Shown here one piece after another: positions 32,628 through 61,306 of a stretch of 64,000 bases of DNA. This DNA comes from Tepidisphaeraceae bacterium (GTDB lineage Bacteria > Planctomycetota > Phycisphaerae > Tepidisphaerales > Tepidisphaeraceae): assembly GCA_035483795.1 (NCBI GenBank), contig DATHPP010000425.1, positions 9,951-73,950 of the forward strand, written 5' to 3'. Position 1 is the stretch's first letter, and each line of letters starts with the position of its first letter. The notes under the pieces were generated by a model. The model was not told where the DNA came from. It searched no databases and saw nothing but the letters and a program-made list of their open reading frames with translations. The position numbers were made by a program, and so were the translations under genes.

Positions 32628-32636
32628 GCGATCACT

Positions 32637-33049: not shown

Positions 33050-33050
33050 T

Positions 33051-33470: not shown

Positions 33471-33474
33471 GGGA

Positions 33475-37368: not shown

Positions 37369-37402
37369 ACGAGAAACCGCCAAGCCGCAGAATTGAAACG
37401 GC

Positions 37403-38024: not shown

Positions 38025-38026
38025 TG

Positions 38027-38055
38027 TCCCCGCGTCTTCGCGTCACCGCGTCTCA
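38027..38055. repeat. octamer-array element (family B), opposite orientation
   Basis: The reverse complement reads gagacgcg gtgacgcg aagacgcg gggacacg gagac. It lies at the junction between the stop at 38053 and the start at 38024. Confidence 0.65.
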
Positions 38056-38352: not shown

Positions 38353-38383
38353 GATAAATCTCGGGAGGAGGGGAGGAGGGAGA

Positions 38384-38464
38384 GTCACTTGTCACTTGTC
38401 ACTGGTCACTTGTTGGGCGCGCGCCCTCTGGCAAGTGACCAATGACAAATGACCCATGACCAAT
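38384..38464. repeat. inverted heptamer-array element (family C), copy 2
   Basis: GTCACTT GTCACTT GTCACTG GTCACTT, spacer ttgggcgcgcgccctctgg, then caagtgaccaatgacaaatgacccatgaccaa. Confidence 0.8.
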
Positions 38465-38466
38465 AA

Positions 38467-38826
38467 TCAGGCGTTGAGGATCAGGGCCGCCGTGGTGGCG
38501 GCGGAGTTGAACACGCCGTAGGACCGGCCGCAGCGGGTGTTGGTCCCCGAGGTGCCGGTAAGCCACAGATTGAACGGGTCCCAGTAGAGGATCTGCCCGT
38601 CCGTGAAGGCTTCGCCGACTCTTTTGGCGATGGGGGAGACGACGCGCTCGTCGCCGCCGCCGATGGCCAGCTCGCCCGAGGCCCCGATAGCGATCGAGGT
38701 AATGGCGATGCCGACAAAGCCGGTGGTGGGACCGGGGGAGAGGATCTGGAGCTGGCTGCTCGCGATCGCCACCCCGGTGTTGTTGGTGTAGGTGTAACGA
38801 TTGCCACGTTTGAATCCGACGATCAT
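38467..38826 (-). CDS. DUF2190-like head decoration protein
   Basis: From ATG 38826: MIVGFKRGNRYTYTNNTGVAIASSQ...GASGELAIGG...FTDGQILYWDP.... The size (~119 aa) and pattern recall the DUF2190 family. It lies immediately downstream of the capsid gene. Confidence 0.55.
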   Translation of the reverse strand: MIVGFKRGNRYTYTNNTGVAIASSQLQILSPGPTTGFVGIAITSIAIGASGELAIGGGDERVVSPIAKRVGEAFTDGQILYWDPFNLWLTGTSGTNTRCGRSYGVFNSAATTAALILNA

Positions 38827-38868
38827 GACTGTTTCTCGCTTTTTGTGTTTGAGGGAAAGAGGAGGGGA

Positions 38869-38939
38869 GTCACTGGTCACTTGTCATTGGTCACTTGGAA
38901 TGACCGCTGACCAATGACAAATGACAAGTGACAAATGAC
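38869..38939. repeat. inverted heptamer-array element (family C), copy 3
   Basis: GTCACTG GTCACTT GTCATTG GTCACTT, spacer ggaatgaccgct, then gaccaatgacaaatgacaagtgacaaatgac. Confidence 0.8.
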
Positions 38940-38943: not shown

Positions 38944-40737
38944 TTAATGCCCGGCGTTCTTGTAGACGCCGCGGAAGTCGATGGCCTTTCCGGCAACCGT
39001 ATGGCGCACCAGGTATTTCACGTCCTCGGTGTCGAAGTCGGTCTCCTGGCGGATGACGGGCTCGGGCTCGTCGGTCAGGAAGCTGAGTTCGATGGTGTTG
39101 ACCTGTCCGTCGCGGAAATCGGCCACCAGGAACCAGGCTTGCGTGTCGGCATCGTCCAGACGGACGCTCCCGACCACCTGGTAGCGGTTGTTGTAGGGGT
39201 TGAAATCGCCCACCGTCTGCGGCACCGCAGCCGACGACGACTGGCTGGCGATCAGGGTCCGGGAACCGATCAGTTCCTTGGTCTGCTCCTCGATCGAGGA
39301 GGGGACCAGGAGGAACTTGGGCTCCAATTCAAGGCGGGCCGCACCGGCCAGACCTTTCTGCTTCTTCATCGCCGTCGAGCCGATTTGAAGCTGGAGCACG
39401 CTGGGCACGCCGCCCGAACCGGCGGTGGTGAGGTTGCTGTGGGCGGCGGAGAAGATGGCGTTGCCGTCGGCCATGTTGGCGTTGCCGGTGATGACGGCGT
39501 AGGCCACGTCGTCTTCCTTACGGGCGGCGGAATTGGCCTGCGCCCTGGGAATTGCGCTAAAAGCATCCAAGTCGTCGTTAATGATGGCGTTGCGCGTTAA
39601 ACGGACACCAGCTTTGTACGTGACCAGCACGTAGGTCTCTTTCGAGTCCTGGAGCTGGACGTACTGCATTTCGCCGGCTTCGTTGGCCGCGACCATGTTC
39701 GGGGCTTCCGACAGGACAACCCGATTGATGTTCTTGAAGTCCGGGTTGAAGCGCTTCTCCGCCCAGGCGGGCCAGGTCCGCTTGGCGTCCAGATAGTTGA
39801 AGCGCAAACTTTTGTTGATCGCGTCGAGCGTGATGTTGCCGAAATCCGGGGTGGATTCCGCCAACGCCGCCATGCGCGGGAAGGCTTGCCGCATGCGGCG
39901 CGGGCCCAGGCAATCGGCCAGGCGGGTCTTGGAGTAGCCGTAGACCTCGGTGAATCCAAGGGACGCCAGGTAATGCCGGAACATGTCGAGCATGGACAGC
40001 TCGCGCAGTTCCTTGGCCCGATCGAGGATCTTGCCCTCGTATTTGATGATCTGCTCGGCCGCCAGTCCGGCGCGGAGCACGATGGCCTGCGGCATGGCGG
40101 CGCGCAGGCTGGCGAGGTTCTTGTCCTCGCCCACCTTCACGCTCAGGAGCGGCTTGGCCGACTCGTGCACGTAGCGCAGGATGGCCATCCGGGCCTGCTC
40201 GAAGGTGCCGTTTTCCGCGATCACCGTATTGGCATAGGCATCGGGAACGGCGTGCAGGGCGGCCAGTTTGCGGATGCGGGCCACTCTTTTTGCCTCGAAA
40301 TCCAATGCCGCGTTGTCGTTGTCGGCATCGTCCAGCTTGGCGGCGACACCGCCGGCCGCCGGCGCTTGCATGCGCTGGCCCTGGGGGAGTTTGGCGCCGG
40401 TGGCGGCGCCCAGTGCGGCGATCGCGGCCTCGGTGGCCAGCTTGATGATCTGCTCCTGGCTCATGCCGGTGGCGGGGACGGCCACGCCCTGGCCGGGCAA
40501 TGCGCCAGCGGCGCCGGAATCGCCGGAGTTGCCGGCGACGGAGGGCTGGCCGGGAACGGGCGGGCCGGCGTGCAGGCCGGTATCGCCGCCGTCGCCGTCC
40601 ATCATGCGCGCGAGCTTGGCGTCGATGTCGGCGCGTTTGTCGGCCGACAGGCCGTCGTAATAGGACTTGGCGTCATCATCTGAGGCATCGGCGTCGCAGC
40701 CGTTCGCCACGAGAAGTGACTTGAGATGGGGGTGCAT
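38944..40737 (-). CDS. major capsid protein (HK97-fold type) with long N-terminal scaffold-like region
   Basis: ATG 40737 is preceded by GAAGGAG. The C-terminal ~330 aa (…ITLDAINKSLRFNYLD…TYKAGVRLTRNAIINDD…FLLVPSSIEEQTKELI…) follow the major-capsid pattern. The N-terminus is acidic, Ala-rich and helical. The track start at 40842 lies inside a repeat. Confidence 0.7.
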   Translation of the reverse strand: MHPHLKSLLVANGCDADASDDDAKSYYDGLSADKRADIDAKLARMMDGDGGDTGLHAGPPVPGQPSVAGNSGDSGAAGALPGQGVAVPATGMSQEQIIKLATEAAIAALGAATGAKLPQGQRMQAPAAGGVAAKLDDADNDNAALDFEAKRVARIRKLAALHAVPDAYANTVIAENGTFEQARMAILRYVHESAKPLLSVKVGEDKNLASLRAAMPQAIVLRAGLAAEQIIKYEGKILDRAKELRELSMLDMFRHYLASLGFTEVYGYSKTRLADCLGPRRMRQAFPRMAALAESTPDFGNITLDAINKSLRFNYLDAKRTWPAWAEKRFNPDFKNINRVVLSEAPNMVAANEAGEMQYVQLQDSKETYVLVTYKAGVRLTRNAIINDDLDAFSAIPRAQANSAARKEDDVAYAVITGNANMADGNAIFSAAHSNLTTAGSGGVPSVLQLQIGSTAMKKQKGLAGAARLELEPKFLLVPSSIEEQTKELIGSRTLIASQSSSAAVPQTVGDFNPYNNRYQVVGSVRLDDADTQAWFLVADFRDGQVNTIELSFLTDEPEPVIRQETDFDTEDVKYLVRHTVAGKAIDFRGVYKNAGH

Positions 40738-40830
40738 ATGCACTCCTTCAAAAATGGAGAGGGAGAACGAACTGCGACCCGGCAACGCGCCGAGTCCATG
40801 CACCGCCGTTTTCAAGAGCTGGTGGGGGAG

Positions 40831-40949
40831 GTCACTCGTCATTGGTCACTGGTCATTTGTTTAGGGTTCCCATCCGCGATCAATCGCGGATGGGAGGCCC
40901 TTGGGCGCGCGGCCCTGGCAAGTGACCAGTGACAAGTGACAAATGACCA
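40831..40949. repeat. inverted heptamer-array element (family C), copy 4, with nested hairpin
   Basis: GTCACTC GTCATTG GTCACTG GTCATTT, an inner hairpin cccatccgcgatcaatcgcggatggg, the spacer gggcgcgcggccctgg shared with copy 2, then caagtgaccagtgacaagtgacaaatgaccag. Confidence 0.8.
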
Positions 40950-44318: not shown

Positions 44319-44677
44319 CTTGCCACGGCGATCAGGCTCACTTTGAACGCCGCCCAGCGCGTTGGCTCAAGTGTGTAGGTGTTCTGGGCCTTGATCGATT
44401 CATGGGCGACAATGAAATTGTGCAGCAGTTGTTTGAGATTCTTCGGCCCGTCCGGCGTGTCGATCCAGGTATATTCGGGGACCGGCGTCGAGGTGCCATC
44501 GGGATGCAAGTTGACCGCATAGACACCAGCGCGGTGATAGCTCGAATAGGCCGCCGATGATGATGACATGCCGAAGCTCGCGCATTGAACGTCGTAGGGG
44601 CCGCTGCTCGTCCACTGAACGTCATAGGGGCGGCTACTCGCCATCGCAACGTCGTAGGGGCGGCTCGAAACCATCAC
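44288..44677 (-). CDS. hypothetical protein with 3x SSRPYDV tandem repeat and YTLEPTRWA motif
   Basis: The N-terminus is encoded by three ~30-nt tandem units (44586-44675). The C-terminal AQNTYTLEPTRWAAFK matches KQSYTLEPTRWARFK in 58583..59245. Confidence 0.5.
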   Translation of the reverse strand: MMVSSRPYDVAMASSRPYDVQWTSSGPYDVQCASFGMSSSSAAYSSYHRAGVYAVNLHPDGTSTPVPEYTWIDTPDGPKNLKQLLHNFIVAHESIKAQNTYTLEPTRWAAFKVSLIAVARWIFGRGKAL

Positions 44678-45297
44678 GCCTTCCGGGTAAGAGTCGCGAT
44701 CGTATCCATCGCTGCCCCTTTGTAATTCGCCAACGCGAACTGCTGGTAGTCCTGGTTCCGCACGATCAGGTCCGGGCGCATCGAGTAGCCCCAGGTCGCA
44801 TCGAAGTCGCAGTTGAACCCACCGGGAAGGACTTCGGCGTCGCTATGCGGGGCGTTGGCCCGGCGCCATTCGCGGTTCAAATAAAAATACCAGAATTCAC
44901 TCAGGGGGGGCCACTGATGGGTTGGGTCTCCATAGGCGCGTTCACTGCACCAGTGCGGGGTGATGATCTGGCACTTGCCGCCGGGGACGAGAATCCGGTA
45001 CAGCTCGTTGACGAAGCCGCAGCGCTGCATCGCCGTCAGGTGCTCCAGAAAATGACTGGCATGCGCTTCGGCGACCGAGGCGTCTTTCCACGGCCAGGGG
45101 ATGATCGTCAGATCGACCACTTGATCCACGCCGACGAAGGGATGGCGATCGCATCCGGTGAAGCCCTCGCGCTTGTGGGGACCGCAGCCGAAGTCCAATT
45201 TGAGCAGCGGCGCAGCGGCGACGGCGGGAATCGCGGGCGCAATCGGCGGCGCAATACTTGGCGCAATCGGGGCCGGGCGGCGTTTGGATTTCACCAC
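44674..45297 (-). CDS. class I SAM methyltransferase
   Basis: LKLDFGCGPHKREGF (motif I), SHFLEHL and LVPGG. Confidence 0.7.
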   Translation of the reverse strand: MVKSKRRPAPIAPSIAPPIAPAIPAVAAAPLLKLDFGCGPHKREGFTGCDRHPFVGVDQVVDLTIIPWPWKDASVAEAHASHFLEHLTAMQRCGFVNELYRILVPGGKCQIITPHWCSERAYGDPTHQWPPLSEFWYFYLNREWRRANAPHSDAEVLPGGFNCDFDATWGYSMRPDLIVRNQDYQQFALANYKGAAMDTIATLTRKA

Positions 45298-46049
45298 ATC
45301 ATGTCCGTGTTGGAATCAAAATGCCCGACGAGAACGCCGCAATCGACGGCGCATCTATACCCGTACTTCCGCGCTTCCCCCCAGAACGCCAGATCCTGGG
45401 TTCCGACACCTTCCTTGCTCGCCAGCGTTTTGAACCACGGCCTGCGGAGACGAGCGTCTTTGAACATGGGCAAGCGCCAGAGCGCGAATCCCATCGATAA
45501 TCCGCAGCACTCGACCAGCTCGCCGGGGCGAGGCGGCTGGGGCCGGAAGTTCACCACCGGATCGTTCACGTCGCCCCAAATGTGCGGAGTCCCGACGCCG
45601 CCCGGCAGTCCGCCCCCTTCCCCCTTACACCAGTACAACCCGGAGATCGCCGCCAGTTCGGGATGCTCCTCCATCCGCGCCACCAGCTTCAAAACCCCAT
45701 CTGACGGCGGGGCGTTATCGTGCTCCATCGTCAAGAGGTATTCCCACTGGCTCAGTTCCGGATGGGCCAGGATGTCTTCGATGGCCTTGGAATACGCCTG
45801 TCCGACTTCCTCTCCCAGCGCCAGGTGTCGATGCACGCCCTGATTCGGGGGAAAGATGAGGGAGCAGTGGGAGAGGTACACCCGTGAAGGAATCGATTCG
45901 GCCGCCGGGATGATGACCGCGATTCGCTGTTTCTTCCACGTCCCTCCGCGCAGGACACGCTGGGTCGAGGCCGCCAGATCGCCGTTGTGACGGCCGGCCT
46001 GGGCGGGGTCGATGGCATCGATGACGGCGTTTTGCAGGCGGGGTTTCAT
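45291..46049 (-). CDS. GT-A (family 2-like) glycosyltransferase
   Basis: RIAVIIPAAES..., LLTMEHDN and GTQDLAFWGEARKYGYRCAVDCGVLVGH follow the GT2-like layout. Confidence 0.6.
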   Translation of the reverse strand: MKPRLQNAVIDAIDPAQAGRHNGDLAASTQRVLRGGTWKKQRIAVIIPAAESIPSRVYLSHCSLIFPPNQGVHRHLALGEEVGQAYSKAIEDILAHPELSQWEYLLTMEHDNAPPSDGVLKLVARMEEHPELAAISGLYWCKGEGGGLPGGVGTPHIWGDVNDPVVNFRPQPPRPGELVECCGLSMGFALWRLPMFKDARLRRPWFKTLASKEGVGTQDLAFWGEARKYGYRCAVDCGVLVGHFDSNTDMMW

Positions 46050-47203
46050 CAGGGATGGGTGATGAGGAAGATCGTCGCGGTGCCTTTGGGTCCTCCGACT
46101 TTGACCATTCCGAACGACCGATTCGGCCGCGTGCGGTACAGTTCCCAGCGCGTTTCCGGGGCATACATATGCTGGGCGAGGGCGAGACCCTGTGACATGA
46201 TGGCCAAGGGATCAGCCAGGCCCGGCTGACCCGGATAGCCCACAGACCCAGAAAATCCGTAAAGACGATGATCCGAGATCAGACCCAGAAACGGCGACGA
46301 CACTCCGTCATCATCGGACCCGATGAACTGATATACCGCGTTGATCGCAGCTTTTCCCGCATTCTGCGGCGATCCTACGTTGGCTTGACTTTTGGATATG
46401 CCGAACGGCTGTAGCTGGCCGCCGCCCTGGACATCGTTACCGCTGACCGGGCCGAGTTGGCCATCGACGAGGATCACTTGCCACGAATTGTTGTAGCCGC
46501 CCGATCCCGACGTAGAGAACGGCATGTAAAGACCACAGATCAGATGCCACTGGCCATCGTTGACTACTTGGCAGCTTTGCACTCCAAACGGAATAGCGCC
46601 GCCCTCGTTGTTGTCAAACATCGTGGCCGCAGCGTTGGCGGTGTTGACGCCGGAACCATCATAAATCTGCATGATAACGCCCATCGTGTGGCCGGGATAA
46701 CCGGAGTTGTCGTTGCGATCGAAGGAATAGATATATGTGTCATGCGGCGTGTCACCAGCGGTGAAGGTGAGCGCTGAGTCGCTGGTGCGTATCCAAGCCG
46801 TCGCCATGTAGGCTTGGCCAAGCACGACGGTATCGGGGATTCCTCCGAAATCCACCGGGTCAACTGAGGTCGCAGATTGATAAGCGTAGGGCCGCGACTG
46901 AGATTGGCCAGAGAATATCCCCGCCATCCCCGCAGGATTGGGAATGCCAAACCAACACGTTCCCATCTGAGGATCGCCGGCGTGAAGCGTGTTCACACTC
47001 GGTGTCATGTGCAGGCCATAAGGTCCGTAGTCCATCGCACACGGAGCCTTGGCCGCGTTGGACATCGGCTCCCAGATCGGCCACCAAGCGTACAGATTTT
47101 TCGCCTGGAAGCTGTCCTGATTTATGCCGACAAACTCGTCGCGGGAAGGGCGCTGATCCATCCCCTCTGAGAGGCCGACGAACTTTTTCATCAGCGGCGT
47201 CAT
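46049..47203 (-). CDS. LamG/concanavalin-A-like lectin-fold protein
   Basis: From ATG 47203 (MTPLMKKF...). …VVNDGQWHLICGLY…WQVILVDGQL… is typical of Laminin_G_3-type jelly rolls. The track N-terminus (to 47572) overlaps another gene and was rejected. Confidence 0.55.
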   Translation of the reverse strand: MTPLMKKFVGLSEGMDQRPSRDEFVGINQDSFQAKNLYAWWPIWEPMSNAAKAPCAMDYGPYGLHMTPSVNTLHAGDPQMGTCWFGIPNPAGMAGIFSGQSQSRPYAYQSATSVDPVDFGGIPDTVVLGQAYMATAWIRTSDSALTFTAGDTPHDTYIYSFDRNDNSGYPGHTMGVIMQIYDGSGVNTANAAATMFDNNEGGAIPFGVQSCQVVNDGQWHLICGLYMPFSTSGSGGYNNSWQVILVDGQLGPVSGNDVQGGGQLQPFGISKSQANVGSPQNAGKAAINAVYQFIGSDDDGVSSPFLGLISDHRLYGFSGSVGYPGQPGLADPLAIMSQGLALAQHMYAPETRWELYRTRPNRSFGMVKVGGPKGTATIFLITHP

Positions 47204-47207: not shown

Positions 47208-47594
47208 TTACTGGTTGATGATCGCGGTCGTGACTTCCTGAGTCTGAACCTGTACCGTCCACGTCGCAACTGACCCGCCACCGGACAACACTTGTACGGC
47301 GTACTGCCCTGTCTCAAGCCGAAGACTGACCTGCTGCAAACCGCCTGACTGGCGTGGCAATCCCAGAGGTTGAAGCGGCTGCGTATCGAAGGTGTTTCCG
47401 CCGTCTGTCGAGCGATAAGCGAAGACTTGCGGTCCGGCCGAAACGTTGGTGGGGAACTGAACGATGATCGGGATCTTGATCTGCCACGCCTGCGTGATGT
47501 TGACGGTGAATGTGAAGGACGAAGATTGCCCGATGCCGATGCCGGCTTGAATCGTCGCGGTCCAGGTTTCAACAGGTGTTGCGACGGTGCTCAT
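47208..47594 (-). CDS. small beta-sandwich protein with Asp-box
   Basis: FAYRSTDGGNTFDTQP is an SxDxGxT[WF] Asp-box. 128 aa. It overlaps the upstream glycosyltransferase by 4 nt. Confidence 0.55.
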   Translation of the reverse strand: MSTVATPVETWTATIQAGIGIGQSSSFTFTVNITQAWQIKIPIIVQFPTNVSAGPQVFAYRSTDGGNTFDTQPLQPLGLPRQSGGLQQVSLRLETGQYAVQVLSGGGSVATWTVQVQTQEVTTAIINQ

Positions 47595-48268
47595 CTATAC
47601 CCCACTGCCATCTCTGGCTCTTGAAGTTCCACCACATCCGGGTCGTAGTCGGCCAGCGATAGCGCCCGCATTTGCAGGTGATGGCACTCGACGCGCATGG
47701 CGCAGACGGCCTTGATCTTCAGTTTCTTCAGACGCAGGAAAAACGAGTGGTCTTCACCGTAGCCGGAAATACGGGAGAACGGCTGCTCTTTCAATTCATC
47801 CTCGATTCGCTCGAACACGCTCCGCTTGACCCACAGACACCCGGCCCCGGCGGAATCGACCTCCAGGACCTCGACCGACTCATCCCATGCCCCAACCGGA
47901 TGAAGCCCTTCGCCCTGCAATCGGAAAACCACCGGAGAGTGCGGCGGGTCTTTGTACTGGTAGACGGCGGTGACGACTTCCGCCCCGGTGCGATCCGCCA
48001 CGTTGAGCAGCCGGTAAGCGATGTCCGGGTCGAAAGCATGGTCCGTGTCAAGCATCAGCAGCCAATCGCCCCGCATGTTGTCGGCCATGATGTTGCGGGC
48101 AACGTCGTGGATGCTCACACGCGGCGGTCGCGGGTAGTGGATGCACTCACCGGGCAGGCAGAGGTATTGCGCGTTCCACTGGATCAGGTCGGCAAAGGAA
48201 TCGACGAACGGGGAGAGAACGGCAGGCGTTCCGCCCATTCTTGCCACCGTGCCGATGTATTTGTTCAT
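47591..48268 (-). CDS. GT-A (family 2-like) glycosyltransferase
   Basis: From ATG 48268 (MNKYIGTVARMGG...). WLLMLDTDHAF is a DxD-type motif and GYGEDHSFFLRLKK follows. The start overlaps the upstream stop as TGATG. Confidence 0.65.
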   Translation of the reverse strand: MNKYIGTVARMGGTPAVLSPFVDSFADLIQWNAQYLCLPGECIHYPRPPRVSIHDVARNIMADNMRGDWLLMLDTDHAFDPDIAYRLLNVADRTGAEVVTAVYQYKDPPHSPVVFRLQGEGLHPVGAWDESVEVLEVDSAGAGCLWVKRSVFERIEDELKEQPFSRISGYGEDHSFFLRLKKLKIKAVCAMRVECHHLQMRALSLADYDPDVVELQEPEMAVGYR

Positions 48269-49458
48269 CAGGAGCACGCGACTTCCTCCATCACTTCCGC
48301 CCACTGCTCGTACTGGTCCACGATCCGCTCCCAATCGAACTTCGCGCGAGCCCATTCCATCATGGGTCCGCGTATCTGTTCTTGCAGCGACAGATCGCTC
48401 GTCAGCCTGCGGATTTCATGGACGTACTGAGCCATCACCAGCGGCTCGTTGGCGGGATCGCCGTTGATGAAGATGCCGTGCCGCACGTTGTCAGCCAGCG
48501 CCCAGAGCGGATTGGTGATGGGGATTGCCCCGCACGCCTGGGCAGACATGCAGGTAATGCAGGATGTCTCGGTAAACGTCGTCGGATAGACCCAAAGCCC
48601 CGCCGACAGGAACTCGCGGTCGAGCTGCGTCTGCCCGATTCGCCCCAGCCACGTCACGCCCGGCTGTTCCAGTCCCGGCCCGCATTCGGCTTCGACGTTC
48701 TGCCAGTATTTGCCCTGGTCGTCTATCTCGACTGGCGGCTTTGTCCTGTCGCCGCACGCCCTACGGACGGCCCAATACTTTTTCTTGCACTTCTTGATGT
48801 TGTCCCATCCGTAGGCAACGGTGAGGGACAGTCGCGGCTCGAACTCGCGGGCACGCCGGAAGATTTTCAGGAGGGACGGGAGGCCGCGGTCGGGGCTGCT
48901 AGAGTAGATGAGTTTGAAGGGGTCACGTCCTATCTGTTTGATCCCCTCGATTCTCTCGACGTTGATCCCATTGCTCGACAGGTGAATCTTGCCTTCAAGC
49001 GTCGGCGACCTCTGTACCAAATACTCCGCCTGCGCCTTGCACAATGCGAGACATCGATCCAGCTTCGTAATCCGTTCGGCTGAAATGCCCTGCGGATTGT
49101 CCTTCCATCCGCTCGCGAAAAACTGATCTGGATAGCACACATCCTGACAGACAAGCCACGTCGTCTGCTCGGGATGGTCCACGGGGAAGTTATCCAGTGC
49201 AGACGGGCAACGTGACAAAACCCACACGCCGGGAGCGGCAAAGTCGGCGGCTTCAAGCGGAAGCCAGCGGGCGTTGCCGTCGTATTCGGGGCAGTTGTCG
49301 CGGAGCGGGGCGTAGACCGTGACGACGTGCCCGCGAGCGGCAAGACGACGGGCCATCTCGACAACCGAAGTCTCAGAGCCGCCTATCCCCGGATTCTCCG
49401 GGCTGCGGTGGTCCCACTTCTCAAAGTGGATCGGGCAGTAGAAATAAAAGGTGCGCAT
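48268..49458 (-). CDS. GT4-type (GT-B) glycosyltransferase
   Basis: From ATG 49458: MRTFYFYCPIHFEKW...GIGGSETSVVEMARRLAARGHVVTVY, and C-terminal TFTETSCITCMSAQACGAIPIT. The start overlaps the fibre gene's stop codon. Confidence 0.75.
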   Translation of the reverse strand: MRTFYFYCPIHFEKWDHRSPENPGIGGSETSVVEMARRLAARGHVVTVYAPLRDNCPEYDGNARWLPLEAADFAAPGVWVLSRCPSALDNFPVDHPEQTTWLVCQDVCYPDQFFASGWKDNPQGISAERITKLDRCLALCKAQAEYLVQRSPTLEGKIHLSSNGINVERIEGIKQIGRDPFKLIYSSSPDRGLPSLLKIFRRAREFEPRLSLTVAYGWDNIKKCKKKYWAVRRACGDRTKPPVEIDDQGKYWQNVEAECGPGLEQPGVTWLGRIGQTQLDREFLSAGLWVYPTTFTETSCITCMSAQACGAIPITNPLWALADNVRHGIFINGDPANEPLVMAQYVHEIRRLTSDLSLQEQIRGPMMEWARAKFDWERIVDQYEQWAEVMEEVACS

Positions 49459-52400
49459 CAGACGCGGTTGTTGGCGAATTCCAGCCAGGTCTTGAACAGG
49501 CTCCCGGCGGTGCTGATCTGAGAGAAGGCGATGGCGCCGTTGGCTTGGCCGGCGTTGTTCAGGTACGTCGAAGCGGGCGAGTAGGTGGCGCTGAACGAAC
49601 CGTGGCCCGGCGAAGGTGCCATAGTGGCGGCGCTGCCCTGTCCCATCCGGCCAAGAGAAGACGCGAGCGAATTGGTGAAGCCGACGTAAGTCAACTGGCC
49701 GCTGAGCGTGAGGTTCGAGGCGTTGACCGACAGGGTGAAGGTTCTCCCGGCCGCGCCGCTGGTGCTGGCAGATGAACTGCTCGACGACGTGCTCGACGCC
49801 ATGTTGACGCCGATCCAGTAATCGCCCGGTGAAAGGGAAGATGCGAAGGCGAGAGGCACGATCTTGTTGGAGGCCCAAGCCGTCGTCGCCATCCAGGTTC
49901 CGGTCAACGAGAAGGAAGACGTGGCGCCGGTCGCCCCAGTGGTGCTGCTGGAGTTGCTGATGCTGCTGGTCCATGATCCGTAGCCGGGCGCCCAGGTGGT
50001 GATGGTCGTCGCCGCGTTGATCGTCGTCATCGTGTTGCTGGTCAACGATGGGAAAGAGACGGTCGCGGCGGCGCTGGAGCTGATGCTGATGGTGCTGTTG
50101 GTGACGTTGAAGGCGTAGGTGTGACCCTCATAGGTAACGAAGGAATTCCGCGTCGAGGCGAAGGTCCACAGTTCATCGGTGAAGCCGCCCGAGCCCCGGC
50201 TGAACAGGTACAGGTCCACCAGGTTGGAGTTGGTGAAAGAGTAGGAGGCGTTGGCGTTGAAGCTGCTCGCCCCGCCGTTGCTGAACGTGACCGTGTTCGC
50301 CGCCGAGGTGCTAGTCAGGCTGGCGCTGGCGATGACGTTGACGACGTTGAAACTGAGGTAATTGTCGAGGCGGAAGGGCTGGAGGAACATCGTCCCCAAA
50401 CCGCCGCTGGTCGTCGCCGAGCCGACATTGAATTCGTAAGGCTCGAAATACGAATTGGTGTAAGCGGGGACGCCGATGGAGATGGTGCTGGCATTGACGC
50501 TGATGGAGACCAGACCCGTGCCGGAGAGTGATGAAGTCTGCGGGACGGAGACGACCCAGCCGGAATTCGAGGCCGCGATCGAGCATGCCCCGCTCCCGGC
50601 CATGGAAATACTTCGGGCATCATAGCTTCCCGATGAAGTTCCGAAGGTGTTCGAGGAAGCGTAGACGCTGCCGGTTTGATTCGTCTGCGAGGCGGCCGAG
50701 ATCGTCACCGACTGGCCGTTCTGGCTGAGCGTGACGTTGTTCCCGCCCGCCAGAATCGCGGTGCCGCTGGAGATGAGGGCATAGCCAGCGCCGGCTGAGG
50801 TCGAGTTCCCGGCCAGGCTCAGGTCAACGCAGTTCTGGGTTTGCACCGTCTGCGTGAAGGCCGACACGGTGACGGAATTCCCGTTCTGCGAAAGCGTGAC
50901 ATTGTTCCCACCAGCCAGGACAAGCGTACCGCTGGAGACCAGAACGTAACCGGCCCCGGCTGAGGTCGAGTTTCCCGAGAGCGTGACATCGACGCAATTC
51001 TGTGTCTGCACCGTCTGCGTGAAGGCCGAGACCGTGACCGCGTTGCCGTTCTGGCTCAGGGTGACGTTGTTGCCACCGGCCAGGGTCATCGTGCCCGAGG
51101 AGATCAGGACATAACCAGCTCCTGCGGAGGTCGAGTTGCCGGCGAGCGTGGCATCGACACAGTTCTGGGTCTGCACGCTCTGCGAAGCGGTTGCGGTGAT
51201 GGTCGAGCCGTTGAGGCCGAAGCTGACGTTGTTGGAGTTGGAGAAGACGACGCTGCCGAGATTGCCACTATTAGCGCCCGCTGAGAAATTCACCGGAGCG
51301 GCAGCGGCGTTGGCACCGGAGATGGTGACCGACTGGCCGTTTTGCGAGAGCGTGATGTTGTTGCCGCCCGCCAGGATCGCCGTGCCGCTGGAAATCAGGA
51401 TGTAACCGGCGCCGGCGGAAGTCGAGTTGCCCGACAAACTCAAGTCCACGCAATTCTGCGTCTGCACCGTTTGCGTCGGCGCGGAGATGATCCAGCCGGA
51501 GTTGGTCGCCGCGACACTGACCGCGCCGCTGCCGGCGATGCTGATCGACCGCGCATCATACGTCCCCGAGGTGCTGCTGAACGTGTTGCTGGAAGCGTAG
51601 AGGTTGCCGGTCTGATTAGTCTGGGCGACCGCGTTGGCAGCCGAGACCGTGACCGAATTCCCGTTCTGGCTGAGCGTGATATTGTTTCCACCGGCCAGGA
51701 CCATCGTGCCACTGGAAATCAGGACATAGCCAGCCCCGGCCGAGGTGGAGTTGCCCGACAGCGTCACATCGACGCAATTCTGGGTCTGGACCGTCTGACT
51801 GGCGGCCGAGACGGTGACCGCGTTGCCGTTCTGGCTTAGGGTGACGTTGTTACCGCCCGCCAGCGTCATCGTGCCCGAGGAAATCAGGGCATAGCCGGCC
51901 CCGGCCGAGGTCGAGTTGCCCGCGAGGGTGGCATCGACACAGTTCTGGGTTTGAACAGTCTGCGCCGGCGCGGAAATCACCCACCCGGAATTCGAGGCCG
52001 CCACCGAGACTGCGCCACTGCCCGCGATGGAAATGCTCCGGGCGTCGTAGGTGCCCGAAGAAGTGCCGAAGGTATTGCTCGAAGCATAGACGTTGCCCGA
52101 TTGATTGCTCTGGGCGGCGAAGCTGGCGGTCGCGGTAATCGTCGAGCCGCTGAGTCCGAAACTGACGTTGTTTGAGTTGGAGAAGGTGACCGCCGAGAGA
52201 TTGTTCGAGGTCGCGCCGGCTGACAGGTTGATATTGCTGATCGTGGCGGCATTCGACTGCATTGCCGTCGTCAGATAAGGCCCCGGCGATTGATAGTTGG
52301 TCGCGACGGTCGCCGTCAGCGTTGAGCCAGTCAGCCCGAAGGAGACGCCGTTGGAATTCGAGAACGTAAGAGCCGACAGGTTATTGGAAGTCGCGCCCGC

Positions 52401-52970
52401 CGAAATGTTGACGTTGGAGATCGTCGCCGCGTTCGACTGCATCGCCGTCGTCAGATAGGGCGGCAGATTTACACTGACCCCGCTGGTATTGACGGTGATC
52501 GAGCCGCCGGTGATCGCGCCGTTCACCCCCGCGTAGTTGCTGGAATTCTGCGACAGGTCCGCCGTGGTCAGGTAGGGCGGCAGGTTGACCGACACACCCG
52601 AGGTGTTCACCGTGATCGAGCCGCCGGTGATCGCGCCGTTCGTCCCGGCAAACGCCGTTTCGATGTCGGTGATCGTCTTGACGGTGATGGTCGCGGCGAT
52701 CTGATCGCCCACCACAATCGAGCGGGCCGAGGTTCCTTCCTGGGTTCGGACGATGGTCAGCGTGTCGGTCGAGACGTTGGTGACGCGGACGATCTCGGCA
52801 TTGCTGGCCATCGGGATCGAGCCGGTCGGCCAGACGGTGGCATTGAACGGCACCGGGGGGAAAAGGCTGCCGCCACCGGCCGAAACGACCAGGGTGGTGC
52901 CGCTGGACGCCGGCGCGGGCGCAGTGGCAACCAAGGTATACGCGAGGTTCTTGTGTTGATCGAAGGGCAT
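49458..52970 (-). CDS. tail fibre / adhesin with modular internal repeats
   Basis: The N-terminus ...PPVPFNATVWPTGSIPMASNAEIVRVTNVSTDTLTIVRTQEGTSARSIVVGDQIA is a motif I recognise from phage minor-tail and fibre proteins. It is followed by 7 copies of a ~54-aa unit QTVQTQNCVDxxLxGNSTSAGAGYxLISSGTxxLAGGNNxTLSQNGxxVTxSA and three other repeated modules. Confidence 0.75.
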   Translation of the reverse strand: MPFDQHKNLAYTLVATAPAPASSGTTLVVSAGGGSLFPPVPFNATVWPTGSIPMASNAEIVRVTNVSTDTLTIVRTQEGTSARSIVVGDQIAATITVKTITDIETAFAGTNGAITGGSITVNTSGVSVNLPPYLTTADLSQNSSNYAGVNGAITGGSITVNTSGVSVNLPPYLTTAMQSNAATISNVNISAGATSNNLSALTFSNSNGVSFGLTGSTLTATVATNYQSPGPYLTTAMQSNAATISNINLSAGATSNNLSAVTFSNSNNVSFGLSGSTITATASFAAQSNQSGNVYASSNTFGTSSGTYDARSISIAGSGAVSVAASNSGWVISAPAQTVQTQNCVDATLAGNSTSAGAGYALISSGTMTLAGGNNVTLSQNGNAVTVSAASQTVQTQNCVDVTLSGNSTSAGAGYVLISSGTMVLAGGNNITLSQNGNSVTVSAANAVAQTNQTGNLYASSNTFSSTSGTYDARSISIAGSGAVSVAATNSGWIISAPTQTVQTQNCVDLSLSGNSTSAGAGYILISSGTAILAGGNNITLSQNGQSVTISGANAAAAPVNFSAGANSGNLGSVVFSNSNNVSFGLNGSTITATASQSVQTQNCVDATLAGNSTSAGAGYVLISSGTMTLAGGNNVTLSQNGNAVTVSAFTQTVQTQNCVDVTLSGNSTSAGAGYVLVSSGTLVLAGGNNVTLSQNGNSVTVSAFTQTVQTQNCVDLSLAGNSTSAGAGYALISSGTAILAGGNNVTLSQNGQSVTISAASQTNQTGSVYASSNTFGTSSGSYDARSISMAGSGACSIAASNSGWVVSVPQTSSLSGTGLVSISVNASTISIGVPAYTNSYFEPYEFNVGSATTSGGLGTMFLQPFRLDNYLSFNVVNVIASASLTSTSAANTVTFSNGGASSFNANASYSFTNSNLVDLYLFSRGSGGFTDELWTFASTRNSFVTYEGHTYAFNVTNSTISISSSAAATVSFPSLTSNTMTTINAATTITTWAPGYGSWTSSISNSSSTTGATGATSSFSLTGTWMATTAWASNKIVPLAFASSLSPGDYWIGVNMASSTSSSSSSASTSGAAGRTFTLSVNASNLTLSGQLTYVGFTNSLASSLGRMGQGSAATMAPSPGHGSFSATYSPASTYLNNAGQANGAIAFSQISTAGSLFKTWLEFANNRV

Positions 52971-52986: not shown

Positions 52987-53397
52987 TCAGTTGATGACCA
53001 CCATTGCACTCGCGCCGGCCGGGGGAAGCTGCACGGTGAAATTGGCGGCGCTGACGGCAAAGTCGCTGCCGAAGTTGATGACCGCAATCGCGTTGTTGGA
53101 GCGGGTGGCGTTGTAGATCAAGGCCCCTCGCGCTGTGAACGTCGCCATCGTCCACACGGGATTGTTCCAGCTCAGATAAGCCGAATCGCCTGACAATCCC
53201 GCCGCGTAACCCGAAAGCGCCATCCCCCCAGCCGTGTAGCCGCTGCCGACCACTTCACCGGCTGAGGTGTAAGCCGTCGTCGTCTTGTCCAGGTTCGCGC
53301 TTGAGGTGTACAGCGCGATCATGTACTGATCGCCCGGCTGGTGCAGCCCGGCCTGGAAATCCTGCTTGGCCTGATCGGTGAACGCGTGGGTGATCAT
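52987..53397 (-). CDS. hypothetical virion protein
   Basis: 136-aa beta-rich protein (…YMIALYTSSANLDKTTTAYTSAGEVVGSGYTAGG…) between the portal and the fibre. Confidence 0.5.
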   Translation of the reverse strand: MITHAFTDQAKQDFQAGLHQPGDQYMIALYTSSANLDKTTTAYTSAGEVVGSGYTAGGMALSGYAAGLSGDSAYLSWNNPVWTMATFTARGALIYNATRSNNAIAVINFGSDFAVSAANFTVQLPPAGASAMVVIN

Positions 53398-53795: not shown

Positions 53796-56700
53796 TTACT
53801 TTTCCCCGCCGGACGCCTCATCAGGCGGATTCGGCTCCACGGTAGGTTCGGGAGGCGCCGGGGGGGGCGAGGCGGGAAGAATGGGCGTTGGGTTCTGGGT
53901 AGTGATCTCGTCGCGGAATCCGGTGACCGTTCCATCGGCATCGCGGATGAAATGACGGGTCATTCCCGACGTCTCGTCTTTCACTTCCGAAGTCAATCCA
54001 TCGGCATCGCGGACGATCGTATGAATCCCCGGAGCGCGAGGCGGCACGGTGACGTTGACGATCGGCGCTTCCACATTCACCTGCGCGGGAGGTGCCGGCG
54101 GCGGAAGGACCGGGGCGGCCACGTTGACGATCGGCGCTTCGACGGTGATCTGCGGCGGCTCGGGTGGCTCGGGTGGATCGGGGAGCTGAATGATCGGAGC
54201 GAGATTCACCACCGGCGCTTCCAGATACACATCGGGCGCAGCTGACGGCGGCGGGGCGTGCAGATGAATGACCGGCGGCTGCACTGTCACCTGCGGCGCG
54301 GCAGACGGCTCGACGTTGATGATCGGCGACTCGACCGTCACCTGGGGCGATGCCTGCGGCGCGGAGGGGGCGGCGTGATAGTGCATTACAGGAGCAGGTT
54401 GTGGGGGAAGGTCCACATTGACGATCGGGGACACGTTCACCGGGGACTGCACCGTGAATTGCGGCGGCAGGGGGGGCAGGGGAGTCGGCAGGGGGGGCTG
54501 CGGGGGAAATTCCACGTTGATGATCGGTGACACGTTCACCTGCGCCGGAGCTGGCGCTTGCACGGCCAATCCGGCGGCGGCTCTGAGCGATGCCAGGTCG
54601 ATCTGCGGCGCTTGATGAATGTGAATGGCGGGAAGCTCCGGCCGCTCTCCCCCTCGCCCCCTCTCCCTTTCGCCCGCTCTCCTCACCAAACGGCGCTCTT
54701 CGGCGCTCATGCTGGTCGTCTGCCCGAACGGGCCGTAAGGATCGCTGTCGGGATAGAACCGGCTTTCCAGATCGATCTGTCCCGGCTGCGGGCCTGGGGG
54801 AAACGTCTTGGCCGTGTTCGGCACGCCGATATTTTCGGTCAGCGTCCTGGCGATCCATTTGTCGCAGACGTAGCTGGGATCGAAAATGAAATTGAACATC
54901 GTGCAGCGTGAACCATTGGCGAACGAGCAGGTGGCGCAGCTCGACACTTCATCGGGCGATTGGCGGTAATTCGGCACCGAGGGCGGGGGAACCTGCGGAA
55001 GCGGCCACGGTCCGCCGGCCACTTCATCGCGGGCCTGGCGATCGGCTGCCGATTGCACGTCGACCCCCCCTGCGGGACTGCCGCGCTGCTGCTGGAGGAT
55101 GAAATCGCTGACGCCTTCCACCGTGCCCCCCCCGCCCGGCGCCGCACTGGCCGCGATGCGACCGCCCGCCTTGGCTGGCGTTTTGCCGTTCTTGCCCTTC
55201 CCATTGCCGTCCTGTCCTGAGCTTGTCGAAGGGTTGCCATTTCCGCCCGGAGGCTTGGGCGCGGGGGCCGCCGGCATGGCCACGTGCACGTGCACGCCCT
55301 GTCCACTTCCCCCTCCCGGCTTTGGCGCCGGTGTCGCCGCGGCTCCGTTTCCTCCGCCTCCCCCTCCCCCACTCTCCCCCTCTCCCCCTCCTCCTCCCGC
55401 CGGCACCGCCGGTTCCTCCACTCCGCCACCGATGACTTTCCCAGCTTTGTTGGTGACCGGATCGCCGGTGATCGTCCCGCCCGTCGGCGTCTGCACCGGC
55501 AGGAGCGGCTGGGTGTAATTCTTCTGCACCGGCAGACCGCCCTGTTGGAACATCGCTGACAGATCAAGCAGGTTGGCGCTGACGGCGTCGACCGTCCCCT
55601 GGCGATTCTCGATGGCCGCTTTGACCAATTCGCGGACGTTGTTCCGCTCGTCGTCGTTCTCCGGCAGCGTGAGTCCGCGGTTTTCGGCCAGGTTCTTCTC
55701 CTCGGCCAGCTTCTCGATGACGTGCGAATAGCGCCCGCCGCGCAACGCGACGATCTCCTCGCGGGTGATCAGGCGGTTCTTGAGCAGGATGACGAAGGCG
55801 TTGGCTTCCTTCTCGGGATCGATCCACGACTGACTGGGCGGGAGATAATCCGCTTCGACATAGCGAAAACGATCGGCGAGGAACTCGTCGGTTGAGAATC
55901 CCTCGATCCCGTCCAGCCGGCCTTCCATCACCGCCCAGTTGAAAAACAGTTCGTAGGCGGGCCGGACCATGGCGTCGATGAATAGTTGCTGCTCGGGCTC
56001 CTGTTCCTTGCGATCTTCCAGCATGTCCTGGCGGGCGGCGGAGTAGTTGGAGTCGTTGCGCCGCGCGATCTGGCCGTAGCTCTGGCCCAAAGCCGCGCCG
56101 ATGCCGCGCACGGTCGTCTCCATGAACGGGTTGTATTGATTGCCCGGCGATTGCGGCACCAGGCTCTGGACCTTCTCACCCGGTACGGTTCGCGCGACCA
56201 TGCCGGGGACGAAGTCGATTTCGTTCATCCCACTGGGCGTCTGGCCGCTGCCGTTGGTGGGCGGACCGAATGAGGTGGCGGGGCCGATGTTGTTGCCGGG
56301 CATCGGTTGCTCGATGATTAATCCGATGCAGCTTTCCATTTCCATGCGCCAGATCGAGGCCGTCTGAACGCGGGAGATATCGCGCATGTCGGCCATCACC
56401 GGGGACAGACCGGTCACGCCGCGGGTCTGCAAAACTCTTTCCTGATCGAAATAGTGAAACATCCGCTGCCGGGGAACGCGCTCGGAAAAGAATGCGTGCC
56501 GATATAAAACGTCGTTGGGGTTACGGGTGTAAATGTGGTATGCGAGCGGCGCCCCGTTCTCGTCCACTTCCACCCCGCCTCTGACTTCCCGTCCGGCATA
56601 GCTGAGAATGCGCAGGTCGAACTGTTCCGCCTCGAAGGCTTGCAAGCGCAGACCGACCGGTTGATTGCGATCGATGATCCCCTCGTTGAGCAAACCGGGG

Positions 56701-57239
56701 AACTTGTAGGACCACATCCACAGGTGCTCGCCGGCGATGAACTTGTCGGCCGCGGCCAGTCTTTGCATCTGGTTGAAGCTCTTGCGCCGCTCGATGTCGC
56801 AGTGCAGACACCAGCGGTGCCACAAGCGGGCCACCACCAGATTCAATTGCGTCAGCGGTTTGCCCTTGGGGTCTTTGGCGTGGGGGATGACTTGAATGCC
56901 CTTGCCGACGACGTTGCGGACGAAGGATTTCTTCGCCGACCGCGCCAGCCAGGAATCGCGATCGAGCTGCCGCGCCCGCCCGATCATCACCGGGGAATCG
57001 GGGATGTTGGCTAAATCTGCCGAGGCGTTGTTGGCCCGCCAGTCGGTGTTGCGGCGTCCGGTATCGGCGGCGGCGTGGATGGAGAGGGCGGCCTGTCCCT
57101 CGCGCATCCTTTTCTTGGTCGCCTGGAGGGCCATCACCTCGACCTGGGCGCGGAGCCGGCGGGCCTGCTTCTCGGCGGGCAGCTCCATCTCCGGCGCGGT
57201 GGCGCGGTTGATCGGGCGGTAGGGATTGCGGCGGGGCAT
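53796..57239 (-). CDS. portal protein (lambda gpB family) with ~600-aa C-terminal extension
   Basis: From ATG 57239 (MPRRNPYRPINR...). RRNTDWRANNASADLANIPDSPVMIGRARQLDRDSWLARS and VRGIGAALGQSYGQIARRNDSNYSAARQDMLE parallel conserved lambda gpB blocks. The C-terminal half is Gly-rich and Pro-rich, with 8 or so PI[VI]NV repeats. Confidence 0.85.
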   Translation of the reverse strand: MPRRNPYRPINRATAPEMELPAEKQARRLRAQVEVMALQATKKRMREGQAALSIHAAADTGRRNTDWRANNASADLANIPDSPVMIGRARQLDRDSWLARSAKKSFVRNVVGKGIQVIPHAKDPKGKPLTQLNLVVARLWHRWCLHCDIERRKSFNQMQRLAAADKFIAGEHLWMWSYKFPGLLNEGIIDRNQPVGLRLQAFEAEQFDLRILSYAGREVRGGVEVDENGAPLAYHIYTRNPNDVLYRHAFFSERVPRQRMFHYFDQERVLQTRGVTGLSPVMADMRDISRVQTASIWRMEMESCIGLIIEQPMPGNNIGPATSFGPPTNGSGQTPSGMNEIDFVPGMVARTVPGEKVQSLVPQSPGNQYNPFMETTVRGIGAALGQSYGQIARRNDSNYSAARQDMLEDRKEQEPEQQLFIDAMVRPAYELFFNWAVMEGRLDGIEGFSTDEFLADRFRYVEADYLPPSQSWIDPEKEANAFVILLKNRLITREEIVALRGGRYSHVIEKLAEEKNLAENRGLTLPENDDERNNVRELVKAAIENRQGTVDAVSANLLDLSAMFQQGGLPVQKNYTQPLLPVQTPTGGTITGDPVTNKAGKVIGGGVEEPAVPAGGGGGEGESGGGGGGGNGAAATPAPKPGGGSGQGVHVHVAMPAAPAPKPPGGNGNPSTSSGQDGNGKGKNGKTPAKAGGRIAASAAPGGGGTVEGVSDFILQQQRGSPAGGVDVQSAADRQARDEVAGGPWPLPQVPPPSVPNYRQSPDEVSSCATCSFANGSRCTMFNFIFDPSYVCDKWIARTLTENIGVPNTAKTFPPGPQPGQIDLESRFYPDSDPYGPFGQTTSMSAEERRLVRRAGERERGRGGERPELPAIHIHQAPQIDLASLRAAAGLAVQAPAPAQVNVSPIINVEFPPQPPLPTPLPPLPPQFTVQSPVNVSPIVNVDLPPQPAPVMHYHAAPSAPQASPQVTVESPIINVEPSAAPQVTVQPPVIHLHAPPPSAAPDVYLEAPVVNLAPIIQLPDPPEPPEPPQITVEAPIVNVAAPVLPPPAPPAQVNVEAPIVNVTVPPRAPGIHTIVRDADGLTSEVKDETSGMTRHFIRDADGTVTGFRDEITTQNPTPILPASPPPAPPEPTVEPNPPDEASGGEK
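54644..54695. repeat. family A element (C-rich on plus strand) inside the portal CDS
   Basis: gctctccccctcgccccctctccctttcgcccgctctcctcac encodes ...GERERGRGGER... in the portal extension. Confidence 0.65.
55349..55410. repeat. family A element (C-rich on plus strand) inside the portal CDS
   Basis: cctccgcctccccctcccccactctccccctctccccctcctcctcccgcc encodes GGGGGEGESGGGGGGG. Confidence 0.65.
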
Positions 57240-57426
57240 TACAATGGAGACCGATGAAATTTCTTCACGCGATGATGACGTCGATGGCGCGGGCCGTCTG
57301 TCTGCTTTCGCTCGGGGTCTTGGCAGCAAAGGGAGATGCGCATACGACGCCGATGGGGAAGGAGGTCCTTCTGCTCGCGATCGCGTTGACTGCGGGAATC
57401 GGATGGATGGAGAGGCCGAGAAAAGA

Positions 57427-57789
57427 TTAGCGGAGGGCGGCGAGTTGCTGATGACCGCCAAGGGGCTGCCCGACCTCGGTGCGCGAGTTGCTGAGATTTT
57501 CGTGCAGGATGACGAGCATCTTTTCCACGTCGTCGATCAGTTCCCTTTGCTCGCGGATCAAACGGGCCAGCGGCGCACGGCCTTCCGGTCGGATCGGCGA
57601 GGGATCGACGCCCTTTTGGCCTTCGCCGAACATGATCCCGCGCCAAGTGTCATGCACACCGCGAGCCTGGGAAGCCACGTGCATAAGTTGCTGGTTGTTC
57701 TCGAAAAGCATCTGGGCGACGTCATCAAGATTGAGGCCGTCCGGCTTGGCGGGTTGAAGTTGTCCGGCGAGTTGTTCAACGCGGTTCAT
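57427..57789 (-). CDS. hypothetical protein upstream of the portal
   Basis: 120-aa helical ORF in operon orientation. Confidence 0.5.
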   Translation of the reverse strand: MNRVEQLAGQLQPAKPDGLNLDDVAQMLFENNQQLMHVASQARGVHDTWRGIMFGEGQKGVDPSPIRPEGRAPLARLIREQRELIDDVEKMLVILHENLSNSRTEVGQPLGGHQQLAALR

Positions 57790-61245: not shown

Positions 61246-61250
61246 GGTCT

Positions 61251-61305
61251 TGCCCTCGCCCCCTCTCCGCGTCCCCGTGTCGCCGCGTCTTCGCGTCTCT
61301 TTCAC
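61251..61305. repeat. octamer-array element (family B) with a family A-like end
   Basis: The reverse complement reads gagacgcg aagacgcg gcgacacg gggacgcg gagagggggcgaggg. It lies between the terminase stop (61307) and the methyltransferase start. Confidence 0.65.
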
Positions 61306-61306
61306 C

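Follow-up and report, generated by a model that had tools for sequence, protein, structure and literature searches.

The subject of this analysis is a long open reading frame (ORF; 49458-52970) and the glycosyltransferase (GT) and methyltransferase (MTase) genes that accompany it in a stretch of 64,000 nucleotides, here called the window, from the planctomycete assembly GCA_035483795.1 (Tepidisphaeraceae bacterium, contig DATHPP010000425.1, positions 9,951 to 73,950). The ORF belongs to a phage or prophage on this contig, and its 1170-residue product is, judging from sequence comparisons, most likely a virion fibre of the tail or receptor-binding type, a head fibre also being possible. An earlier note on this DNA had proposed that the fibre is the substrate of a GT4-type and a GT2-like enzyme encoded directly after it. 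The general idea, that GTs encoded by the phage in the same operon modify the fibre, fits the gene content of the region. However, the specific pairing is not borne out by related loci, which show as the partners of the fibre a different pair of enzymes, a GT-A-fold glycosyltransferase (GT-A) and an MTase dependent on S-adenosylmethionine (SAM), which in the window begin five genes downstream of it. Overall, we lean with modest confidence towards an explanation in which the fibre would be modified by the GT-A/MTase pair, with the GT4-GT2 cassette nested between, all of them being part of the phage's own machinery for virion glycans.

The fibre C-terminal domain and its constant neighbours

In the first three loci recovered with a fibre homologue (L001, L002 and L003), the next genes encode homologues of the GT-A (41-64% identity) and of the MTase (44-68%), and an uncultured podovirus from Manatee Spring (GenBank MW202524) likewise combines a fibre homologue with a GT-A and an MTase, so that in all four of the first loci it is these partners, and not GT4-GT2, that directly follow the fibre gene. 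The same composition was found when IMG/VR was searched with the GT-A family and the best 80 of 275 loci were analysed. In 66/78 of these viral loci the GT-A gene is immediately followed by an MTase gene. The ORF directly upstream has a combined Ser, Thr and Asn (S+T+N) fraction of 0.30-0.41 in 74/78 and matches the window fibre by BLAST in 42/78. A scan of species-representative genomes, from which 80 of 120 loci were analysed (mostly metagenome-assembled genomes, MAGs, of Patescibacteria/Saccharibacteria and Gammaproteobacteria), also yielded an S/T/N-rich ORF upstream of the GT-A gene in most cases and an MTase gene at no more than 1.6 kb in 61/73.

The upstream ORFs are related through their C-terminal domain. 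A hidden Markov model (HMM) of this domain, built iteratively and giving 53.9 bits with the window fibre, matched 71 of the 78 ORFs located upstream of GT-A homologues, none of 390 shuffled controls and no ORF in the GT4 loci described below. Of the 120 best-scoring homologues of the fibre, about 65 terminate in this domain, and the shortest ORFs preceding GT-A genes, of about 290 residues, consist of barely more than it. A homologue search with the domain alone produced 6 matches, the word index performing poorly on low-complexity sequence. Its AlphaFold2 (AF2) model, of modest confidence (predicted local distance difference test, pLDDT, 64.5), is all-beta and gave no significant fold match in the PDB; the best match in BFVD was a protein from an uncultured member of Caudovirales (E 9e-15). 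Fibres carrying this domain are almost always directly followed by GT-A and then by MTase. In contrast, among 160 fibre loci (80 viral and 80 genomic) a GT4 match was present in only one, and a GT2 match in none. This near absence indicates that the GT4, GT2, 128-residue and 384-residue ORFs of the window separate genes that are normally adjacent.

Some of these loci deserve a separate mention. In one fibre homologue (L074:2-2530) the C-terminal domain, single and terminal in other members, is repeated in tandem to give three copies. In MW202524 (L039, locus 1799-10630) the capsid gene is directly followed by a gene for a 762-residue GT that is similar to the window GT4 in its C-terminal half, and then by two more GTs, the fibre homologue, an MTase, the GT-A (annotated as 'has synthase') and a second MTase; in this locus the same parts have come together independently. 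Among GTDB genomes (L120-L199), Saccharibacteria/Patescibacteria MAGs contain GT-A homologues (about 40-45% identity) that keep their fibre and MTase neighbours and are encoded on large contigs or on complete chromosomes (for instance, OY969928, 1.26 Mb). These copies represent either prophages of bacteria of the candidate phyla radiation (CPR) or a module put to cellular use.

The GT-A protein belongs to a family without annotation that comprises 3,726 clusters (formed at 90% identity); the 120 best listed, 63-75% identical to the window protein, include none that is named and none with a Pfam domain. Its score against the Pfam GT2 model (13.2 bits) falls below the cut-off of 23.3. However, an hhalign comparison with the GT2 family of the cassette gave a probability of 96.4% (E 1.4e-9) over the region from the DxD position to the C-terminus, and its AF2 model (pLDDT 80.8; predicted template modelling score, pTM, 0.80) retrieved 51 PDB matches at E<=1e-3, of which nearly all those listed are GT-A glycosyltransferases. 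The top Foldseek matches were STIV A197, SpsA, GalNAc-T2, the LH3 collagen glycosyltransferase domain and Mimivirus R699. The residues E109-H110-D111, at the position equivalent to DxD, are invariant in the family, as are D219, H243 and D245. Given the GT-A fold and these invariant residues, which resemble a metal site, the protein is probably an active enzyme. As for the MTase, its profile matches the PDB methyltransferase 3dli (7e-4), and its motif residues are invariant across homologues 40-70% identical. Both proteins are far more conserved than the fibres that accompany them. A GT-A family that keeps 40-70% identity while the adjacent fibres diverge freely offers a concrete candidate for a new protein glycosyltransferase, and one that is easy to clone. 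When GT4 and GT-A were compared by tblastn with 50,697 phage records, matches appeared in uncultured phages only.

From the gene order, the conservation and the fold assignments described here, we infer the following chemistry. The GT-A and the MTase would modify the fibre in the cytoplasm, prior to assembly, with the C-terminal domain as the most plausible site. Soluble GT-A and GT-B enzymes together with an S/T-rich protein lead one to expect an O-linkage to Ser/Thr, so the GT-A would probably O-glycosylate such residues of the fibre, and the MTase would methylate either the sugar or the protein. GT4 and GT2 might extend the fibre glycan or, alternatively, glycosylate another virion protein, for example the small S/T-rich protein encoded in the cassette itself or a head protein. 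Considering also a second island of similar genes, the phage appears to encode its own machinery to coat virion surface proteins with methylated glycans. Glycosylation of the fibre is plausible and gains support from the conserved fibre-GT-A-MTase unit, the action of GT4-GT2 on the fibre being the least supported part of the claim. It may be tentatively proposed, as a possibility that we do not yet regard as probable, that the three-gene unit (a fibre with the C-terminal domain, a dedicated GT-A and an MTase) represents a general, previously undescribed system for the glycosylation and methyl-decoration of receptor-binding phage fibres, to which phages like this one add further GT cassettes for more complex glycans. 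Such a system would be present in thousands of environmental sequences, with hosts ranging from Patescibacteria to Planctomycetota.

Architecture of the fibre and its sequons

The fibre ORF, which is real and has the length and S/T richness given in the earlier note, encodes a protein with 17.4% Ser, 13.1% Thr, 12.6% Ala, 10.4% Gly and 9.4% Asn. Its S/T content (30.5%) is the maximum among the ORFs of the window, whose median is 9.9%, and the second position corresponds to the 128-residue ORF of the cassette (21.9%). A protein deposited at NCBI from a Tepidisphaeraceae MAG of the Planctomycetota (VK797_23030, encoded on a 121.6-kb contig) is 100% identical to it, and its relatives number more than 1,443; a search for near-identical DNA with the region 38.9-57.5 kb of the window found no match among GenBank phages. 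The first 108 residues resemble the N-termini of Itty13 gp13, annotated as 'tail protein', and of a coding sequence of MW202566 annotated as 'tail fiber', and it is on this basis that the protein is called a tail or receptor-binding fibre. The family is very large and environmental. Its members have an attachment domain at the N-terminus and the conserved domain at the C-terminus, and the stretch in between is built from beta-rich modules that are interchangeable. This layout of anchor domain, repeats and distal domain is shared with modular phage fibres having an Mtd_N-type N-terminus (PF18454), and PF18454 is present in some members of the family. However, the N-terminal domain of the window fibre does not match PF18454 at E<=0.01, nor does it align with the members bearing it.

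The four kinds of internal repeat previously described are indeed present, although the 55-residue unit A (QTVQTQNCVD...VT.SA) occurs six times and not seven, with copies starting at residues 337, 392, 500, 597, 652 and 707. Repeat B starts at residues 109 and 148, repeat C at 177 and 237 (with a degenerate third copy around residue 548) and repeat D at 289, 452 and 764. The copies of unit A are 75-93% identical as protein and 69-86% as DNA, and the longest exact direct repeat within the gene has 30 nucleotides. These two figures make it less likely that the number of copies changes easily by recombination, as had been suggested; the copies are old, their similarity being held by selection at the protein level, and are hence a poor substrate for recombination. 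The fibre family is modular on an evolutionary time scale: HMMs of the units, applied to the 120 best fibre homologues, found from 0 to 11-14 copies per module type in many combinations.

Every copy of unit A contains at least two N-x-S/T sequons (NST and N[VI]T), as had been reported. The alleged richness of the whole fibre in such sites, in contrast to its richness in S/T, did not withstand a comparison with 2000 shuffles of its own residues: the count was 35 sites, and the expectation 32.8±4.6 (p about 0.36). A count at the level expected from composition implies that the sequons are a by-product of it. In addition, the Pfam matches of the late-region ORFs scanned include no GT41, oligosaccharyltransferase or other N-glycosylating type of enzyme. 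In both respects the system differs from cytoplasmic N-glycosylation of the HMW1C type.

The GT4-GT2 cassette and the competing explanations

The assignments of the two transferases following the fibre are supported by Pfam, both exceeding their thresholds. GT4 gave 42.6 bits with Glyco_transf_4 (cut-off 28.5); for a C-terminal Glycos_transf_1 domain it reached 18.8 bits, below the cut-off of 26.4, and its family profile matches GlgM and BshA-like GT4 structures in the PDB at 8e-5 to 2e-4. In the family alignment, E297 of the E-x7-E motif is invariant, while no Glu is conserved 8 positions further on. GT2 gave 29.1 bits with Glycos_transf_2 (cut-off 23.3), and its D74-T75-D76 motif is invariant in 17 sequences. 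Single-sequence searches of the PDB with the GT4, GT2 and GT-A proteins offered nothing useful. Scanning IMG/VR with GT4 identified 34 viral loci (35-48% identity; 35-58% over the best aligned segment), in all of which a GT2 homologue follows GT4; the GT2 homologues were gathered through these loci, and a scan with GT2 alone, which used over-specific back-translated patterns, was empty. Neither a fibre homologue (by BLAST) nor the fibre C-terminal domain (by HMM) was found in any of the 34 loci.

The third member of the cassette is a small ORF. In the window this is the 128-residue protein that had been called an Asp-box protein, a designation supported by one copy of an Asp-box-like sequence, STDGGNTF (test motif S-x-D-x-G-x-T-W), that is kept in 5 homologues as S-x-D-G-G-x-x-F/Y-D; the protein has no Pfam BNR match and only weak GH74 matches (E>=0.056). 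Homologues of it come after GT2 in 6 loci, and a small ORF of 115-130 residues with 19-24% S/T follows GT2 in about 22/26. That these small ORFs form a single family was ruled out by HMM iteration and hhalign. GT4, GT2 and the small ORF constitute a self-contained, independently mobile cassette. The next protein, of 384 residues, was said to have a LamG lectin fold, but no LamG domain is detectable in it, nor did it give any Pfam (E<=1), PHROG, NCBIfam or PDB sequence match, and no fetched locus has a homologue. Elsewhere, the cassette is placed after a gene for a major head protein and that of a 176-residue protein (L029, L031, L033 and L034), after a portal gene and two small ORFs, which equals the layout of the window minus the fibre (L008), or directly downstream of a 602-residue collagen-like protein with G-x-T repeats (L006:4097-5905). 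The contigs of L009-L027, about 15 in IMG/VR, lack recognisable tailed-phage genes and any PHROG or Pfam structural match, and may represent an undescribed virus group. Their cassette is found within a conserved set of small ORFs that includes an HNH-containing protein of 390 residues, others of 125, 240, 230, 150 and 395 residues and several predicted membrane proteins.

The order of genes in the window is portal, two small ORFs, fibre, GT4, GT2, 128-residue ORF, 384-residue ORF, GT-A and MTase. Stop and start codons overlap at 8 of the 12 junctions between the portal gene and ORF 43533, and all gaps have 16 nucleotides or less, so that the eight genes from the fibre region are one compact, overlapping late operon. 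The overlaps emphasised in the earlier note are real, with one base of a TGATG common to the fibre stop and the GT4 start, and likewise to the GT4 stop and the GT2 start; however, given their operon-wide occurrence, they carry no information specific to the fibre-GT4 pair. No transmembrane segments were predicted in the enzymes of the operon, nor in the 128- and 384-residue proteins.

These data do not speak well for the proposal that GT4 and GT2 glycosylate the fibre and are coupled to it by their overlapping codons, which we consider rather unlikely. It is true that both genes immediately adjoin that of the most S/T-rich protein nearby, and that a GT4-like domain is also combined with a fibre locus in MW202524 and L091. 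Nevertheless, the viral GT4-GT2 loci are devoid of such fibres in every case, GT4 or GT2 turned up in only 1/80 viral and 0/80 genomic fibre loci, and the codon overlap is a general property of the operon. The frequent presence of a small S/T-rich ORF after GT2 and the location of the cassette behind head or portal genes in L008 and the four loci mentioned above would rather agree with a target other than the fibre, such as the small protein of the cassette, the capsid or a decoration protein, the fibre being left to GT-A/MTase or unmodified. We regard this second possibility as doubtful too, since the small ORF families have no detectable mutual homology and the major capsid protein of the window, a protease fusion, lacks the S/T-rich C-terminal tail known from mycobacteriophages. 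It is quite improbable that the transferases act instead on host envelope glycans (as in seroconversion or superinfection exclusion) or on phage DNA (glycosyl hypermodification): all enzymes are soluble, no lipid-carrier or membrane component is seen in the operon, the genes belong to a late structural operon and not to a module for lysogeny or replication, the GT-A gene remains beside fibre genes across phyla, and the best structural matches of the GT-A are protein and polysaccharide GT-A enzymes. Such roles are, however, established for phage GTs (reviewed in PMC12619734), and a DNA methyltransferase gene adjoins that of the terminase.

Modification of the fibre by GT-A and MTase also has to face several arguments that weigh against it. 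Adjacency of genes is no proof of an enzyme-substrate relation, and the slot directly after a tail-fibre gene is classically that of assembly chaperones. The cassette thrives without such fibres in 34/34 other loci, and the sequons of the fibre are not enriched over composition. Neither the enzymes nor the fibre have a characterised relative, and none was found in a cultured phage. Moreover, the HMM of the C-terminal domain comes from iterative building on sequences of biased composition; it passed its shuffle control, but with a stricter filter it matches no more than 24/78 genome loci. If the chaperone argument is taken to its end, the GT-A-like and MTase-like proteins would be non-catalytic fibre assembly factors with enzyme folds, a notion to which the score of the GT-A family below the Pfam GT2 threshold would also lend itself. 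This is very improbable, because the E-H-D motif, the C-terminal His/Asp pair and the MTase motif are all invariant across 40-70% identical homologues, and conservation is much stronger in the two proteins than in the fibres next to them. The case illustrates that, where mobile modules are nested, immediate adjacency and codon overlap can indicate the wrong enzyme-substrate pair.

Known systems and the wider gene context

By analogy, the closest functional precedent would be the glycosylation of mycobacteriophage virions, whose capsid and tail-tube subunits carry glycans according to the accounts of Freeman 2023 given in PMC12619734 and PMC11256854. Mycobacteriophages such as Che8, Corndog and Myrna likewise have soluble phage GTs and an O-methyltransferase inside the structural operon, and in Corndog one O-methyltransferase and three GTs are encoded between portal and protease (PMC4351075), that is, in the same interval as those of the window, where the fibre has the portal gene on one side and the protease/capsid gene on the other. 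The presumed target is in both cases a virion surface protein. However, the mycobacteriophage acceptors are C-terminal parts of capsid or tail-tube proteins, whereas the candidate of the window is a long modular fibre; the Che8 and Corndog enzymes have no homology to the window GT4 or GT-A detectable by tblastn; and the window phage has a planctomycete host and a far larger number of GT and MTase genes.

Giant viruses provide a second parallel, as clusters of GT and methyltransferase genes encoded by the virus decorate the surface fibrils of Mimivirus and other Megavirinae and, in chloroviruses, the capsid protein (PMC10117803, PMC8456856), and the window GT-A has Mimivirus R699 as one of its structural neighbours. 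Unlike the window, where no such pathway genes were recognised, they make their own nucleotide sugars, and their hosts are eukaryotes. STIV A197 (PDB 2c0n), the best structural match of the GT-A (E 6e-9, TM 0.68 on the target), is also a small, soluble viral GT-A, but it belongs to a virus of archaea, is only 14% identical and is encoded among unrelated genes. Finally, bacterial adhesin systems (serine-rich repeat proteins, SRRP, with GtfA/B; HMW1/HMW1C; AIDA-I/Aah) also place a repeat-rich, S/T/N-rich surface fibre beside cytoplasmic GTs. In contrast to them, the Pfam matches of the ORFs scanned in the window include no GT41 or heptosyltransferase, no accessory Sec system was recognised, the sequons are not enriched and the protein is a phage structural component.

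In the searchable literature, phage-encoded virion glycosylation is documented only for mycobacteriophage capsid and tail-tube proteins, and exact-phrase searches, which give a weak negative, found no paper on phage-encoded glycosylation of tail fibres. A glycosylated receptor-binding fibre, if confirmed, would affect host recognition, protease resistance, adhesion to polysaccharide matrices and antibody recognition.

The features of the window are collected in Table 1; every gene treated in this analysis lies on the minus strand, and the genes around the fibre are typical of a tailed phage. NCBIfam gave no match for 9 of the 10 proteins scanned.

Table 1. Positions of the fibre, its candidate modifying enzymes and other features of the window (aa, amino acids).
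Feature	Position	Strand	Description
Fibre ORF	49458-52970	minus	1170 aa; anchor-like N-domain aa 1-108, beta-rich modules aa 109-811, conserved C-terminal domain
Fibre repeat region	50538-52646	minus	B x2, C x2 + 1 degenerate, D x3, A (55 aa) x6
Fibre C-terminal domain	49584-50528	minus	aa 815-1129; family domain ~265 aa
GT-A-fold glycosyltransferase	45291-46049	minus	252 aa, soluble; unannotated family
SAM-dependent methyltransferase	44674-45297	minus	207 aa; class I; phrog_6636 5.7e-12
GT4-like (GT-B) glycosyltransferase	48268-49458	minus	396 aa, soluble; Pfam Glyco_transf_4 8.6e-11
GT2-like (GT-A) glycosyltransferase	47591-48268	minus	225 aa; Pfam Glycos_transf_2 1.1e-6
Asp-box-like S/T-rich protein	47208-47594	minus	128 aa; third cassette member in a subset of loci
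384-aa ORF (formerly 'LamG' protein)	46049-47203	minus	function unknown
ORF upstream of fibre	52987-53397	minus	136 aa; phrog_644 (function unknown), PHROG 2.7e-14
Lambda-family portal	53796-57461	minus	1221 aa
DNA methyltransferase	59866-61380	minus	adjoins terminase gene
Large terminase	61307-63296	minus
Protease/major-head fusion	38944-40842	minus
Head decoration protein	38467-38880	minus
gpW-like connector	22741-23103	minus
Second glyco-gene island	21850-38395 (GT/MTase genes 23713-38395)	minus	between head-decoration and gpW-like connector genes
Weak GT-A candidates	37403-38395; 27054-27791	minus
Weak dual-specificity phosphatase match	33051-33470
Further methyltransferases	31810-32478; 28297-28755	minus
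Glyco_trans_1_2 protein	30082-31176	minus	5.9e-29
TylF-type O-methyltransferase	26464-26997	minus	8.9e-16
GT	23713-24288	minus	phrog_14775, 3e-31
Histidine phosphatase	21850-22668	minus

Homologues of the 136-residue ORF that precedes the fibre are also found upstream of the fibre-GT-A-MTase unit in 12/80 viral loci. In the portal protein, the portal profiles match residues 108-608 only, and the C-terminal part, of about 600 residues, is Gly/Pro-rich, with many repeats of the P-x-V-N-V or P-Q-V-T-V type and no family match. The terminase is split into two adjacent ORFs (62742-63296 and 61307-62737) corresponding to successive parts of phrog_15, and the second of them overlaps the DNA methyltransferase gene by 74 nucleotides at its 3' end; the split could stem from an error in the assembly, from a frameshift or from a programmed event. 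The window contains no gene of the size of a tape measure and no identified tail-tube gene. At 14349-17904, a gene for a minor tail protein (phrog_290) adjoins that of a 641-residue protein containing NHL repeats and an Ig-like domain of the He_PIG type, which may be a second host-recognition protein.

With the second island, the late region has at least four GT-like genes beyond the three of the operon and another four methyltransferase genes, and this complement of glyco-genes is unusually large for a phage of such size.

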